From positions 1 to 64,000 of the forward strand of contig CAVTBV010000001.1 in the NCBI GenBank assembly GCA_963733095.1: 64,000 bases of DNA, read 5' to 3'. The notes beneath the pieces are model-generated. The model saw nothing but the letters and a program-made list of their open reading frames with translations. It did not search any database and was not told where the DNA came from. The position numbers and the translations under genes are program-made. The DNA is from Candidatus Bathyarchaeota archaeon. Its GTDB lineage: Archaea; Thermoproteota; Bathyarchaeia; Bathyarchaeales; Bathycorpusculaceae. Below are positions 16,793 to 25,715 of this stretch, piece after piece; position 1 is the stretch's first letter; each line of letters begins with the position of its first letter.

Positions 16793-17800
16793 ATGGCTGT
16801 TAATGAAGAAGCACTTATGTGGGTTGAGAAGTACCGTCCCAAAACCCTCGACGACGTCATCGGCTTAAAGGACATCACCGATAGCCTCAAGGCATTTATG
16901 AAAAACCCAAAAAACATGCCGCATTTGATGCTGGCAGGGATTCCTGGGACAGGAAAAACAACCATCGCCCTCTGCATAGCCCATGAACTCTACGGAGCAA
17001 ACTGGAGAAACTTTACCTTAGAACTTAACGCCTCAGACGAGCGAGGCATAGACACGGTACGTGACCGAATAAAAGATTTCTCACGTTACAGCCGCACAGG
17101 ATTCGGCGACATACCCTTCGCACTTATAATTCTAGACGAATGCGACCAGATGACAGGACCAGCTCAAACCGCCTTAAGACGCATAATGGAGATAGGCTCA
17201 CGCACATCCAGGTTCATATTGATTTGTAACCAATCCAGCAAAATCATCGAGCCCATCCAGAGTCGCTGCGCAATCTTCCGCTTCTCAAGGCTCGACAAAC
17301 AAGCCATGAAAGAACACCTGCAATGCATAGCCAAAAAAGAAAACGTAACCCTGCTACCTGAAGCGGCGGAACGAATCGTGGATTACGCCGAAGGTGACTT
17401 GCGACACGCTATAAACGCTCTGCAAACAGCCTCAGCCTACAAGCAAGGCTTCGTAGATGAGAAGACAGTTTCACTGGTCATCGGCGAAGCAAGCCCCATG
17501 CAAGTCCAAAAAATGATACGCAAAGCCCTCTACGGCGAATTCATCGAATCCCGAAAAACCATGTATGAAATCATGGGCAACTTTGGGTTCTCAGGCAACG
17601 AAATCATCCGCCAAATCCAACGGGAAATCTTCAAAATGTCCGACCTAACGCCAGAGCAGAAGGCAGACCTCTCAAACATCATCGGCGAATACGACTACCG
17701 CCTAACACAGGGAGCCGACAGCGACATCCAACTAAGCGCACTGTTGGCGCAGTTTGGAAAGTTTGGGAAACATGTAGAGGAAAACTATGCAGCGAAATGA
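16793..17800 (+). CDS. rfcS: replication factor C small subunit
   Basis: WVEKYRP, GIPGTGKT, LNASDERG, DECD, IQSRC; no intein. Confidence 0.96.
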   Translation: MAVNEEALMWVEKYRPKTLDDVIGLKDITDSLKAFMKNPKNMPHLMLAGIPGTGKTTIALCIAHELYGANWRNFTLELNASDERGIDTVRDRIKDFSRYSRTGFGDIPFALIILDECDQMTGPAQTALRRIMEIGSRTSRFILICNQSSKIIEPIQSRCAIFRFSRLDKQAMKEHLQCIAKKENVTLLPEAAERIVDYAEGDLRHAINALQTASAYKQGFVDEKTVSLVIGEASPMQVQKMIRKALYGEFIESRKTMYEIMGNFGFSGNEIIRQIQREIFKMSDLTPEQKADLSNIIGEYDYRLTQGADSDIQLSALLAQFGKFGKHVEENYAAK

Positions 17801-19025
17801 ATTGCTGTGGGTTGAAAAGTACCGCCCCAAAAGAATCGAAGACATAGTTGGAAATGAAGAAGCCAAAGCGGCCTTTGTTGAGTGGCTAAAGAACAAGCGC
17901 CACACCAAAAAAGCCATGCTCTTGTATGGTCCACCTGGCGTGGGAAAAACCGCGCTTATCAACGCTGCTGCCCGCGAGTTCGGTTTCTCAATAATCGAAA
18001 TGAACGCCAGCGACACCCGCTCCGAGAAAGCCGTAAACGCAGTCGCCAAACCAGCCACCTCCTACGTTGCACTCGACAATTTTTCGGGTTCACCCAAAAA
18101 AGGCGGCAACCTTTTGTTCTTAGATGAAGTCGACGGAATCGCGGGCAACGAAGACCGCGGAGGCGTCAGCGCAATAATCAAGATTGTGGAAGAATCGCTG
18201 GTTCCAGTCATCATGGCAGCAAACAATCCCGACATAGATAAACTCCGCCCACTCAAGAAAGTTTGTTTTCTTGTGCGTTTCCAGCAGGTACGCATCCCAC
18301 TAATCATTGCGTTGCTGCAGAAAATCTGTCTGCTTGAGCATGTGAAAGCCGAGTTTGAAGCGCTTGAGCGAATTGCCCAAAACAGCCGCGGCGACGTACG
18401 CTCCGCCATCAATGACCTGCAGAGCTTAAGCGAACAAAACCACTCCTTAACCCTCCAAGACACTGTGATGCTGAGTTCCCGAAACAAAGACATCAGCATG
18501 GACGAAACGTTACGTGGATACTTTTCAACTAAATCCATCGCTGAAGTCTCCAGTTTGCTTAGCTACTCGGGTGTGGACTACGACGATTTTCTGCTCTCAG
18601 TCAGCGACAACCTGCCAAAACGTTACCCCGACCCCGATGAGTTGGCAGCAGCCTACGATTTTATCAGCAAAGCCGACATGTTCCGAGGCAGAATCGGAAC
18701 CGAACATTGGCACCTGCTCAAATACTTCTTCAACGAACTCTCACAAGCAGCCGCAGTAAACCCCCAATCCTACAAGCCATTCGGGCTCATATCACCCCCA
18801 ATACGCATAATCACCCTGTTCTGGACAAAAGGAAAAAGAACCATGCTAAACGGCATATGCAGCAAAATCGGAGCACAATGCCATGTTTCCATCGTAACCG
18901 CCAAACACGATTTTGTACCTTACATAAAATTGATTCTGCAAAAACAGAAAACCAACCCGCTAATCGAATGGTTCAAGTTCACGCCAGAAGAGGTTGATTT
19001 CCTAATCAAAATGAACAGGTTTTGA
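17787..19025 (+). CDS. rfcL: replication factor C large subunit
   Basis: WVEKYRP, GPPGVGKT, MNASD, DEVDG. Confidence 0.95.
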   Translation: MQRNELLWVEKYRPKRIEDIVGNEEAKAAFVEWLKNKRHTKKAMLLYGPPGVGKTALINAAAREFGFSIIEMNASDTRSEKAVNAVAKPATSYVALDNFSGSPKKGGNLLFLDEVDGIAGNEDRGGVSAIIKIVEESLVPVIMAANNPDIDKLRPLKKVCFLVRFQQVRIPLIIALLQKICLLEHVKAEFEALERIAQNSRGDVRSAINDLQSLSEQNHSLTLQDTVMLSSRNKDISMDETLRGYFSTKSIAEVSSLLSYSGVDYDDFLLSVSDNLPKRYPDPDELAAAYDFISKADMFRGRIGTEHWHLLKYFFNELSQAAAVNPQSYKPFGLISPPIRIITLFWTKGKRTMLNGICSKIGAQCHVSIVTAKHDFVPYIKLILQKQKTNPLIEWFKFTPEEVDFLIKMNRF

Positions 19026-21089: not shown

Positions 21090-21365
21090 GTGAACGTTCC
21101 TAAAGAAGTAAAAACTTACTGTCCAAAATGTAAAGCTCACCAACTTCACAGTGTAACTCTCTACAAACCTGGAAAGCGCAGAGCCTTAGCTAGAGGCGAA
21201 CGCCACCATGAACGTGAAAAAGAGGGTTACGGTGGACAAAAATATCCACTGCAACATGAATTCGCAAAAACTACCAAGAAACAAACTCTGCGCTTAAAAT
21301 GCAAAGTTTGCAGTTACATGCGTCACAAAGACGGCATCCGACTACGAAAACTAGCTATAGTGTAG
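21090..21365 (+). CDS. rpl44e: 50S ribosomal protein L44e
   Basis: TYCPKCKAH, GYGGQKYP, KTTKK..L.LKC. Confidence 0.96.
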   Translation: MNVPKEVKTYCPKCKAHQLHSVTLYKPGKRRALARGERHHEREKEGYGGQKYPLQHEFAKTTKKQTLRLKCKVCSYMRHKDGIRLRKLAIV

Positions 21366-21384
21366 AATTAACGGAGAGAAAATT

Positions 21385-21582
21385 ATGTCTGAATGGAATA
21401 AACTCATCCCCAAACCACGAAGCGTCTTCCTGCGGGTTAAATGCCAAAAATGCGGCAACGAACAACTAATCTTCAGCAATGCAGTCAACAAAATAACCTG
21501 CAACGTCTGCGGAGACTTATTAGCTGAACCCAGCGGCGGAAGAGCAAAAATTAACGGTGACGTCCAAGCGGTTCTTGAGTAG
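21385..21582 (+). CDS. rps27e: 30S ribosomal protein S27e
   Basis: PRSVFLRVKCQKCGNEQ, CNVCG...PSGGRA. Confidence 0.96.
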   Translation: MSEWNKLIPKPRSVFLRVKCQKCGNEQLIFSNAVNKITCNVCGDLLAEPSGGRAKINGDVQAVLE

Positions 21583-21596
21583 AGATGAACGGTGAA

Positions 21597-21644
21597 ATGG
21601 CTGAGCGTAAGCCACAATTGACCGTTTTTAGAAGGGACCACTAA
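21597..21644 (+). pseudogene. 15-codon mini-ORF (MAERKPQLTVFRRDH) at the canonical aIF2-alpha position; probable deletion remnant
   Basis: GGTGA SD at 21591-95; lies between rps27e and nop10; its stop abuts the nop10 TTG. Confidence 0.6.
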
Positions 21645-21815
21645 TTGGTTTGGCAAATGCGCAAATGCGTAAAATGCGAAAAATACACTTTAAACAAAAC
21701 TAGTTGCCCCTACTGTGGAGGACCCGTGAGGATTCCTCATCCACCGAAATTTTCCCCAGATGATAAATACCTAAAGTACAGAATGGCTATGAAAAGGAGC
21801 GCACAAACAAAATGA
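21645..21815 (+). CDS. nop10: H/ACA RNP protein Nop10 (missed by the ORF track)
   Basis: MVWQMRKCVKCEKYTL...CPYCGG...PHPPKFSPDDKYLKYR; stop overlaps the next ATG. Confidence 0.95.
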   Translation: MVWQMRKCVKCEKYTLNKTSCPYCGGPVRIPHPPKFSPDDKYLKYRMAMKRSAQTK

Positions 21816-22582
21816 AAGAAACCTACATCAAAGAATTCAGTGAAATCCACCCCAACAACCCAATCTTAATCGAGGGTCTTCCAGGCCTTGGCTTAGTAGG
21901 AAAAATCGCGCTCCGCTACCTAATCAAACAACTAAAACCCAAAAAAGTCGCCTACCTCTACTCACCGCATTTCCCATACTTCGTATTAGTCAACAAGAAG
22001 GGAAACGTGCGTCTTCTAAGGGGAGCATTCTACTACTACCAAAACCCCAAAGGCAGCGATATAATACTCTTCACGGGCGATAGTCAATCACAAACCATCG
22101 AAGGACAATACGAAATCGCCGACCGAATGCTCGACTTCTCCGAAAAACATGGCGTAAAAACAATCGCAACAATCGGCGGCTACCGCATGGAACCCCAAGA
22201 AAAACCCAAAGTCTTCATAGCATCCACCTCACAAGACGTCCTACATAAAGCACTGGAAGCAGGTGCAACTCTAAGCGCATCAGGCAGCCCAATCGTCGGA
22301 ACAGCTGGACTTATTCTTGGTTTGGCAAAATTCAAAAAAATAAATGCCCTCTGCCTGCTGGGCGAAACACGAGGTTACCTACCTGACCCCTTAGCAGCTA
22401 AAAGCGTCTTAGAAGTGTTAAAATCAACGTTCAACTTCGACTTAGATCTCACTGGCTTAAACGAAGAAATCACCAAAGCAGAAACGATGGTTACCCGCCT
22501 ACAGCAAATCGAAGAAAAACGCGCCGTCCAAGCAGAAGAAACACGAAAACAAGAAGATAAGAAAACCACCTATATTTCTTAA
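21812..22582 (+). CDS. PAC2 family proteasome assembly chaperone
   Basis: IEGLPGLGLVGKIA, TIGGY, LLGETRGYLPDP; canonical position after nop10. Confidence 0.92.
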   Translation: MKETYIKEFSEIHPNNPILIEGLPGLGLVGKIALRYLIKQLKPKKVAYLYSPHFPYFVLVNKKGNVRLLRGAFYYYQNPKGSDIILFTGDSQSQTIEGQYEIADRMLDFSEKHGVKTIATIGGYRMEPQEKPKVFIASTSQDVLHKALEAGATLSASGSPIVGTAGLILGLAKFKKINALCLLGETRGYLPDPLAAKSVLEVLKSTFNFDLDLTGLNEEITKAETMVTRLQQIEEKRAVQAEETRKQEDKKTTYIS

Positions 22583-23681: not shown

Positions 23682-25715
23682 TTATGTTTTCTTAAGGCAT
23701 CCTTCCCGCGGCTCATAAATTGTTCCTTCCCGCAGAAGTTGGCTTATCATCCGTTCGACTTCGCCCCTTGGAATCTTTTGTTTGGTTTCCAACTCATTCA
23801 CAAGCGAGTCTTTCTCCACGATGCCCGTTATCTTTTCCATGTCCATAAGCGTTGACAATACCACATGTAATTTGTCCCGGATGCTCTTTGGCCTGCCTGT
23901 CATAATCAAGTCAATGTCCACTTTGTAGCTGGACATGTCGATTCCAACTTCCTCCAACGACCGCTTCATAATGGCAATAGCTGCATCTGCATCTTCCGCA
24001 GTGACTTCTTTGCGTAGCGCCACGCGAGCTCTCGCTTCGGCAACCCGAACCAGAGATTCCAGTTGACGTGCGGTGATGGCTACTGGTGAGCCTTCTGTTT
24101 CGCTTGCTGAACGCATTGCTAAGTAGAAGTCGCTTAAGCGGTTTAATGCCTCCATGCTGAGTTCTGGGTGTACACTTTTCGCAAAACTAACGTATTTGCG
24201 CAGAAGCTCTGCGTCAACCTGTGCTTCTACGGGGCTTACTCCTCTTCGGTGGATTTCCAAGATGTGTCTTGACATTTTGTTGTCGGATTCTTTGTTCGGG
24301 ATGTCTCGGAGAACGAAGATTAAGTCAAAACGTGACAGGATAGTTACTGGCAGGGAAATGTTTTCTGCGACGGTTCGGTTTGGTTCATACCTGCCCAGTG
24401 ATGGATTAGCGGCTGCAAGAACCGCCGTCCTTGCGTTCAATGTTGCAACGATGCCTCCTTTTGCAACTGAAACTGTATGTTGTTCCATGGCTTCGTGGAT
24501 GGCAACGCGGTCTTCGGGACGCATTTTGTCCATTTCGTCGATGCATGCGATGCCTTTGTCAGCGAGGACGAGTGCGCCTGCTTCAAGGCTCATGCTTCCA
24601 CCTTTCTCTCGAACTACTGCAGCAGTTAAGCCTGCGGCAGTGGTTCCTCTACCTGAAGTATACAAGCCTCTTGGCGCAATTCTTGCCACATATTGGAGAA
24701 GCTGCGATTTGGCTGTACCTGGGTCACCGATGAGTAATGCGTTCATTTCGCCCCTTACATTAACGTCTGGCAGGGTCTTTGAAACGCCGCCAAAGAGAAG
24801 ATACATTATTGCTTCTTTGATGTGTTCTAAGCCGAAGATTGAGGGCGCGATGGAGGTCAAGATTTTTTTGTGTACCAATGGATCTTTGGATAGTTGGATC
24901 ATTTTTGCTTCTTCTTCGGGTGTGGGCGGCGAGGTTTCGGGTTCTTTGCCTAAAACTTCTATGGAGTTTGCGTCTAATTGAAGGATGAATGTGCGGAGTT
25001 TTCCCATGCCCATCAGTGAAGGCGCAAAAGCGCGGACGATGCCAACTATGGAAACGTGGTCTCCTGGTCTTGCAACATCCACTATTTCATCGCCAATAAG
25101 TTTCACCGCTAAAACCCGCGGTAACTGTCCAGGGGGCAAATCCTCAGGTTTTTCTTGGAGTCTTAGATCCTGTGAATCTATAAACGTAGATTCTTCTTGG
25201 CTAAACTCGAATGGTCCGTCTCGTCCACAGTCAGGAGCAACACAGACCGCGGGCGCCTTCAAAAATTGCCCCGTTTGTTCAACTTGGTTTATGGTGCCAC
25301 AGCGTTTGCATTTGAAGGCAGCTACCTGAACCATCGGACGCACTGGCGTTGCCCGAACAACTATGCCTTCAATCATGATTAACTTGCTCATCTGTCTTGA
25401 GCCGAGCTTTCGAAGTACTTCTTTGCCCAGAAGCTTTACGATTCTGACAATAACTTTCTCTATTTTCTCAGCGTACTCAGCATCTTCAATTCGGAGTTGC
25501 TCATAAGCTCCTTTGCCTGAATGCACCAAATATTCTTCAGGTCTGTTGAGCAGTTGCTCCGCGAGTGCTTGATCGAATCCATAAAGCTCCTCAAAATTTA
25601 TAGTTAACGAGCCTTTGCCCGAGATGGCTAACTGAGCGATTCTTTGGCGGTATTTTTCTTTTTTGAAGAATTCTTGAAAACGCTGCTGAGGATCTATTGT
25701 TTCAAGCTTCGCCAT
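23682..25715 (-). CDS. mcm: MCM replicative helicase
   Basis: GDPGTAKSQ, CIDEMDKM, SRFD, Zn finger, C-terminal wH; no intein. Confidence 0.98.
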   Translation of the reverse strand: MAKLETIDPQQRFQEFFKKEKYRQRIAQLAISGKGSLTINFEELYGFDQALAEQLLNRPEEYLVHSGKGAYEQLRIEDAEYAEKIEKVIVRIVKLLGKEVLRKLGSRQMSKLIMIEGIVVRATPVRPMVQVAAFKCKRCGTINQVEQTGQFLKAPAVCVAPDCGRDGPFEFSQEESTFIDSQDLRLQEKPEDLPPGQLPRVLAVKLIGDEIVDVARPGDHVSIVGIVRAFAPSLMGMGKLRTFILQLDANSIEVLGKEPETSPPTPEEEAKMIQLSKDPLVHKKILTSIAPSIFGLEHIKEAIMYLLFGGVSKTLPDVNVRGEMNALLIGDPGTAKSQLLQYVARIAPRGLYTSGRGTTAAGLTAAVVREKGGSMSLEAGALVLADKGIACIDEMDKMRPEDRVAIHEAMEQHTVSVAKGGIVATLNARTAVLAAANPSLGRYEPNRTVAENISLPVTILSRFDLIFVLRDIPNKESDNKMSRHILEIHRRGVSPVEAQVDAELLRKYVSFAKSVHPELSMEALNRLSDFYLAMRSASETEGSPVAITARQLESLVRVAEARARVALRKEVTAEDADAAIAIMKRSLEEVGIDMSSYKVDIDLIMTGRPKSIRDKLHVVLSTLMDMEKITGIVEKDSLVNELETKQKIPRGEVERMISQLLREGTIYEPREGCLKKT

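Follow-up and report, generated by a model that had tools for sequence, protein, structure and literature searches.

Between the rps27e and nop10 genes of a bathyarchaeal genome lies an open reading frame of 15 codons (the mini-ORF), a remnant of the ancestral operon copy of aIF2-alpha that was probably kept as a ribosome-delivery ORF, coupling the translation of nop10 to its own. The working aIF2-alpha of this organism is a paralogue at another locus, and the operon copy has collapsed recurrently within the genus. Support for selection on the remnant, and for its reading as a delivery ORF, is moderate; that nop10 translation depends on the relic is what we infer from sequence comparison.

Layout of the locus

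The DNA analyzed (the window) is a stretch of 64,000 nt from Candidatus Bathyarchaeota archaeon (GenBank assembly GCA_963733095.1, contig CAVTBV010000001.1, positions 1 to 64,000 of the forward strand). In it, rpl44e, rps27e, nop10 and a PAC2-family gene are co-directional and closely packed, all four with matches above the Pfam cut-offs. The features of the locus are as follows:

21090..21365, + strand: rpl44e (L44e), first gene of the cluster (Pfam PF00935, E 2.3e-25)
21385..21582, + strand: rps27e (S27e), with its stop TAG at 21580-21582 (Pfam PF01667, E 2.6e-20)
21591..21595, + strand: GGTGA, putative Shine-Dalgarno (SD) sequence of the mini-ORF, 1 base 5' of its ATG (complementary to the 3' end of the genome's own 16S rRNA)
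21597..21644, + strand: mini-ORF of 15 codons and a TAA, left over in frame from aIF2-alpha paralogue B, the operon copy (alignment to both ends of full-length slots)
21627..21637, + strand: TTTAGAAGGGA, conserved element within the final codons of both B and the remnant, presumably acting at the RNA level (conservation)
21645..21815, + strand: nop10, with its TTG start right after the mini-ORF stop (Pfam PF04135, matching from residue 1)
21812..22582, + strand: PAC2-family gene, its ATG overlapping the nop10 stop (ATGA) (Pfam PF09754, E 3.2e-44)

The gap between rps27e and nop10 (21583-21644) measures 62 nt. Within it, the mini-ORF starts with ATG at 21597, runs through 15 codons (MAERKPQLTVFRRDH) and ends with TAA at 21642-21644, the nop10 TTG at 21645 following immediately; a second in-frame ATG at 21585 would lengthen it to 19 codons. 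As the 16S rRNA of the same genome ends in ...GGATCACCTCCT, with which GGTGA (21591-21595) pairs in 5 of 5 bases, the latter is a perfect five-base SD sequence. The mini-ORF (21597-21644) is a remnant of aIF2-alpha and not a member of that family, which is defined by an S1 and an EIF_2_alpha domain over about 260 aa. The cluster likewise departs from the definition of the archaeal LSIN cluster (L44E-S27E-aIF2alpha-Nop10): L, S and N are present in order and I is reduced to the 15-codon relic, yielding a derived LS(i)N form. In their geometry, the mini-ORF and nop10 correspond to a termination-reinitiation (TeRe) pair, which consists of same-strand ORFs with an overlap of 4 or 1 nt or with no more than a few nt between them; here TAA abuts TTG.

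The RNA of 21575-21700 is predicted to fold more stably than shuffled sequences (dG -31.5, z -3.4). One hairpin in this fold spans the SD sequence and ATG of the mini-ORF; the stop and the nop10 TTG are covered by a small hairpin formed between GGACCA and UGGUUU, the pairing bases of which vary among relatives. A few kb to either side of the ribosomal cluster lie a gene for an RFC-like AAA+ clamp-loader subunit (17787-19025, + strand) and an MCM helicase gene (23682-25715, - strand), which echo the archaeal replication-translation supercluster as portrayed in the accessible part of Berthon et al. (2008; PMC2643942).

A complete aIF2-alpha at another locus

An intact aIF2-alpha gene, hereafter copy A, was located on a contig other than that of the window (G000:C9:235557-236342, where G000 denotes the window's genome). 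It encodes 262 aa without stops, carries both domains of an aIF2-alpha (PF07541 at 97 bits, cut-off 22.8; S1 domain PF00575 at 46.4 bits, cut-off 22), and is colinear with an operon copy, to which it is 69% identical. In a Pfam search of the 2.84-Mb, 95%-complete assembly it was the sole EIF_2_alpha match above the cut-off; a second match (C13, 14 bits) was rejected as aIF2-alpha, being below the cut-off and devoid of an S1 domain. The genes for the remaining subunits that the aIF2 heterotrimer requires are present as well, beta as a PF01873 match at C7:23541-23876 (126 bits) and gamma as a PF09173 match at C1:111121-111375, inside a 430-aa frame. The window's organism is thus not missing any core initiation-factor subunit; a paralogue serves instead of the operon copy. 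A preliminary description of the locus had considered that aIF2-alpha was either relocated or lost, and had proposed a genome-wide search for the alpha, beta and gamma genes. With all three found, and alpha at another locus, loss is refuted by the intact copy A, and relocation comes close to the actual course, which was duplication first and decay of the operon copy second.

About 12 nt 3' of the copy A stop lies a 124-aa ORF without Pfam match (L001:1939-2313, on contig C9), and 12 of the 17 A loci examined have an ORF of this kind at the corresponding position. It was rejected as a piece of aIF2-alpha, BLASTP giving no similarity (E 2.5). Upstream of copy A, a truncated ORF on the border of the locus (L001:3-314) has a weak, sub-threshold match to a CAP12/Pycsar TIR-domain family (E 0.0029, 18 bits at a cut-off of 24.7).

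Two paralogues across the genus

Operon loci were gathered from 100 congeners and the window's genome (101 loci), and later from 16 further genomes, resulting in a set of 117. The order L44e-S27e-slot-nop10-PAC2 is kept in 101 of 101 loci, with a slot of 795-812 nt in 45 and of 59-300 nt in 56; the 16 further genomes contributed eight long and eight short slots. In total, 53 of the 117 genomes have a full-length operon copy (copy B) and 64 have a short slot (59-300 bp). The long slots carry an aIF2-alpha of the 261-aa class, 59-70% identical to copy A of the window's genome. Outside the genus, 15 genomes of the same taxonomic order had a match; loci from 7 of them were examined, and all 7 harbor a full aIF2-alpha between S27e and nop10. 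The two paralogues can be told apart by their termini, B starting with MAERKP[EQ]WPE and ending in ...GTFRREK, and A starting with MSEHKP and ending in ...SFKREK.

For a quick IQ-TREE phylogeny, 68 proteins were used (17 A, 44 B and 7 outgroups), with 6 in-genus rows that duplicate operon loci excluded. A formed a single clade (SH-aLRT 100) on a long stem (0.36), and A and B together were separated from the outgroups (SH-aLRT 99), from which it follows that A is an in-genus duplicate; its place among the B lineages is not settled in this quick tree.

Copy A accompanies a long B slot in 29 of the 117 genomes (counting G069, whose assembly is error-rich, and G126, with one TGA in its B), and B occurs by itself in 24. 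Another 57 combine A with a short slot, and for the last 7 a short slot was found and no full-length copy, six of these assemblies being 52-75% complete and one 88% complete in 240 contigs. All 73 high-quality genomes have at least one aIF2-alpha copy. Full-length operon copies that carry stops occur in G069 and G126, both of which also have A. Since 29 genomes hold A together with a full-length operon copy, the duplication preceded the decay of the latter.

The operon copy of G126 (G126:C13:102801-103583, locus L221) is full-length and interrupted by one TGA, in frame at codon 136 and 378 nt before nop10. Its identity to A, which this genome also has, is unusually low (57%), and it resembles either a first step in the decay found in other genomes or an assembly error. 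Some assemblies contain two A-type copies, such as G060 (on C8 and C9, both 92% identical to the query; 6% contamination), and one long public contig (L160, L178) carries two with 83% and 75% identity. These may represent further duplication or strain mixtures.

Collapse of the operon copy by internal deletion

When aligned with the full slot of G098, the window slot matches reference positions 1-41 and 779-801 (50 of 62 nt identical), with one gap of 738 nt, which equals 246 codons. Of B, the mini-ORF has kept codons 1-9 and the final 6 and, judged by this sequence, is of the B (operon) type and not of the A type now in use. It is no chance ORF, as a full aIF2-alpha occupies its position in 53 of the 117 genomes and in all 7 out-of-genus loci examined, and as its DNA aligns with both ends of the full gene. 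The preliminary description had the layout right to the base (62 bp gap, SD GGTGA, ATG...TAA abutting the nop10 TTG), and further points that it made on this locus hold as well. The rpl44e-rps27e-aIF2a-nop10-PAC2 order that it regarded as conserved in archaea recurs around the slot in 101 of 101 loci, and 7 of 7 out-of-genus loci have the full gene between S27e and nop10; the in-frame internal deletion, retaining both termini and the stop-start junction, is borne out by the 738-nt gap and by TAA abutting TTG; and the termini it gave (roughly MAERKPEWP, and a basic F-R/K-R tail) agree with those of the operon copies (MAERKP[EQ]WPE...GTFRREK), to which the scar, aligned as it had advised, matches in codons 1-9 and the last 6. 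No result of the analysis favors the link to relaxed start-codon use that it had put forward as speculative.

In the close clade of the window, alignment revealed nested slot lengths of 141, 120, 81/80, 75-70 and 63/62 nt, and the identical 15-codon allele is found in G078 and G125. Some short alleles cannot derive from one another, because the segments they retain differ reciprocally: G051, for example, retains reference positions 146-206, which are absent from G095, and G095 retains 647-755, which are absent from G051. A tree of the flank genes was built from 89 rows, excluding 12 loci whose flank genes were fragmented in tblastn (G067, G023, G016, G072, G089, G075, G044, G092, G083, G080, G113 and G069). 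On this tree the short/full label requires 7 changes, with at least 4 of them forced by branches with SH-aLRT of 95 or above. Operon copy B has therefore collapsed at least 4 times, most parsimoniously 7.

The slot was also checked against public sequencing runs. A 537-nt contig of run X1, which may be the source sample, spans 21441-21977 with 4 differences and no gap; contigs of X2 and X3 cover parts of the stretch, none bridging the slot. The gapless X1 contig, together with the short slots of 63 other assemblies of the genus, excludes the assembly collapse for which the preliminary description had advised a check. That the short slot reflects an artefact of this kind (of about 800 bp), or a true loss of aIF2-alpha, has next to no probability, in view of the X1 contig, of the many different alleles among the 64 short-slot assemblies, and of the intact copy A in the window's genome. 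A contig from an RNA-library run (X10; a close relative with 12 differences) extends from 21324 to 21636, i.e. from the rpl44e 3' end through rps27e into the mini-ORF, and its loose end runs on through a stop into TTGG. As an RNA library can contain DNA, this contig is no proof of transcription.

Reading frame and junction in the short slots

Frame ends were read from the ancestral ATG in all 64 short slots and are given relative to the nop10 start:

Exactly at the nop10 start: 46 of 64
Within 5 nt of the nop10 start: 6 of 64
12-13 nt upstream of the nop10 start: 8 of 64
28 nt inside nop10: 3 of 64
38 nt upstream of nop10 (G127): 1 of 64

In G127, an ATG located 4 nt upstream opens a 20-codon frame that reaches the ancestral stop; the frame of G101 is without a canonical start. 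The tight junction is ancestral, given that the stop of the full-length B lies at most 2 nt from the nop10 start in 44 of 45 long slots. Among relatives, the remnant frames range from 14 to 94 codons. The smallest slot measures 59 nt, with none shorter among the 117 genomes, and two separate clades have converged on 14-15 codons.

Ahead of the B start, in the stretch that follows the rps27e stop, many relatives (e.g. L082, L067 and L222) have a two-codon ORF (ATG ACG TAA) and a ATGAATGG double start, an arrangement that places an ATG in two of the three frames there. A looser criterion for the remnant frame, accepting an ATG anywhere within the slot's first 25 nt, was dropped, as ATGAATGG covers two of three frames and the null is about 2/3.

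The aligned first codon of nop10 is TTG in 78, GTG in 16 and ATG in 6 of 101 loci, a start codon being present in 100 of the 101. It is preceded by a partial SD sequence only (GAAGG); with this possible SD of its own, some de novo initiation of nop10 is likely. Five of the 6 loci with an ATG-starting nop10 have a short slot (G080, G021, G009, G056 and G083). The ATG starts might be a compensation after loss of B, in numbers too small to carry a conclusion.

Probable selection on the remnants

Full-length and short loci both show hardly any variation in the last 17 nt or so of the slot (TTTAGAAGGGA.AAATAA) or in the nop10 start, while the interior of the short slots is not conserved. The TTTAGAAGGGA element reaches about 2 bits per position over 18 full-length and 36 short loci, and no other 15-nt window in the alignment of the whole B gene is as conserved as that of this element. 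The 5' start region of the slots is conserved in addition to the 3' end; in the remnant frame this corresponds to the first about 6 and last about 5 residues. In intact B genes the conservation of the ends holds at synonymous sites, too, which points to RNA-level signals. GAAGG in the TTTAGAAGGGA element matches 4 of 5 bases of the SD core, and the element may be a weak SD sequence or a reinitiation element for nop10.

Across 7 allele groups (26 sequences), 34 synonymous and 102 nonsynonymous changes were counted. The resulting N/(N+S) of 0.75 equals the neutral expectation, so the peptide itself is unconstrained. A functional micropeptide, that is, a new small protein that joins both ends of aIF2-alpha, would agree with the open frame and with the conserved first and last residues. 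We consider it very improbable, as the length varies between 14 and 94 codons among relatives, the interior evolves at the neutral N/(N+S), and the ends are conserved at synonymous sites in intact B, as expected for RNA-level signals.

For a test on stop codons, 48 quality-filtered remnants with 1223 retained in-phase codons were compared to 41 intact B genes, in which 164 distinct amino-acid states of the remnants are absent. No stop was found where 9.7 were expected (P 6e-5; stop:missense 0.059), the test being a parsimony lower bound under an assumed mutation spectrum (ts/tv 2). Stricter trimming left 121 novel states and again 0 stops, with 7.1 expected (P 8e-4); novel states then amount to 0.155 per codon, about 14 times the 0.011 private states per codon of intact B. 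By these counts, the remnants look selected to stay translatable, and the avoidance of stops lends indirect support to a dependence of nop10 translation on that of the mini-ORF.

The length of the deletions is less telling. When the unflagged short slots were grouped by hand, 21 of 32 length alleles kept the ancestral frame and stop (P 1.9e-4 for a null of 1/3). Owing to codon periodicity, 46-58% of the direct repeats within B that are 4-7 nt long and spaced at deletion size are in phase; under the corresponding microhomology null the in-frame excess has a P of 0.02-0.25. With such in-phase repeats, the frame count is no independent proof of selection and was not used as one. Frameshifted alleles persist, with a 217-nt allele in 3 genomes and a 55-nt allele in 2, and several 1-nt frameshifts in or near an A5 run may be assembly errors, with an effect either way.

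The frame data are also compatible with a neutral scar, i.e. a real remnant without function, its frame and junction inherited from B and so far undecayed, and its conserved 3' end simply the ribosome-binding site of nop10 itself. The in-frame excess is not significant if the deletions were microhomology-mediated, a frame as short as 15 codons will often be open by chance, 2-3 genomes have frameshifted alleles in common, G126 has an early stop, and the peptide evolves neutrally. We regard a neutral scar as possible, yet doubtful: with 121-164 independent missense states, 7-10 stops were expected and none was observed; frames of 50-94 codons are still open; the 5' start region is conserved besides the 3' end; and none of the 64 cases is a removal of the full slot, two clades sharing the minimal size.

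Discussion

aIF2-alpha was duplicated early in the bathyarchaeal genus, and the new copy A, situated on another contig and preceded by an upstream region of its own, took over. B then became dispensable, and independent internal deletions collapsed it in several lineages; in that of the window, this was one in-frame deletion of 246 codons, or a nested series adding up to that length. The remnant has kept the ribosome-binding site and start of B as well as its last 17 nt or so, with the stop abutting the weak TTG. In the mechanism that we propose for the delivery ORF, ribosomes would enter at the former start of aIF2-alpha and read through the short frame; having terminated at TAA|TTG, they would reinitiate on nop10, or at least unmask its start. 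Selection would then act on an open frame ending at the junction rather than on the peptide. We also lean towards the wider statement that a core gene has been whittled down in at least 4 (most parsimoniously 7) lineages, two of them converging on 14-15 codons, and selected solely as a device that hands ribosomes over to nop10.

Berthon et al. (2008; PMC2643942) describe the LSIN cluster as almost universal among archaea; partial clusters occur in some lineages, and the accessible part of that account reports no remnant of the mini-ORF kind. Compared to the LSIN cluster as given there, the window has the identical gene order and the COG2047/PAC2 gene next to it, but its I member comprises only 15 codons, the working aIF2-alpha being a paralogue at another locus (PMC2643942).

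In the portion of Huber et al. (2023; PMC10666635) available to us, reinitiation in Haloferax volcanii is put at 40-60% at a distance of 13-14 nt and about zero at 22-23 nt, and for Escherichia coli the terminal 15 nt of the upstream gene are stated to suffice. Like such TeRe pairs, the window has two same-strand ORFs, with a stop-start distance of 0 nt, and TeRe needs no more of the upstream gene than a short 3' piece (PMC10666635). The stop positions in the genus (0, ±1-5 and some -13) fit the fall-off measured there (PMC10666635). In contrast to the TeRe gene pairs of that study, the upstream partner in the window is a 15-codon relic instead of a gene (PMC10666635).

Short upstream ORFs have been proposed to 'deliver' ribosomes to a coupled downstream gene, according to the accessible part of a review (PMC12548453). 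The mini-ORF resembles these delivery uORFs in being short, and would also share with them an irrelevant product and a translation that drives the next gene; it differs from those covered there in its visible origin, namely the collapsed body of a displaced core gene, recurrent in several lineages (PMC12548453). In H. volcanii, aIF2alpha can be deleted at a severe growth cost, as stated in the available part of Gabel et al. (2013; PMC3828320). The in-frame deletions engineered there in aIF genes share the architecture of the remnant, with the 5' and 3' gene ends kept; unlike those alleles, the mini-ORF is natural, and aIF2-alpha function is kept by the paralogue (PMC3828320).

No earlier account of aIF2-alpha being duplicated in Bathyarchaeia, or of gene remnants retained for coupling, was found in the literature searched, which consisted of main texts, mostly outside subscription journals. 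Replacement by a paralogue and TeRe coupling are known; what is added here is that a displaced gene has repeatedly collapsed into a mini-ORF that is open and preserves the junction. The genus provides a clean case of aIF2-alpha duplication followed by loss of either copy. If the coupling is true, its members hold about thirty natural deletion alleles of one junction, which would yield data on what archaeal termination-reinitiation needs of an upstream ORF, and the deletion series would show the birth of a 'delivery' uORF from a gene. Relics of operon genes could then be kept for the act of translation alone, in DNA that annotators would discard as intergenic.
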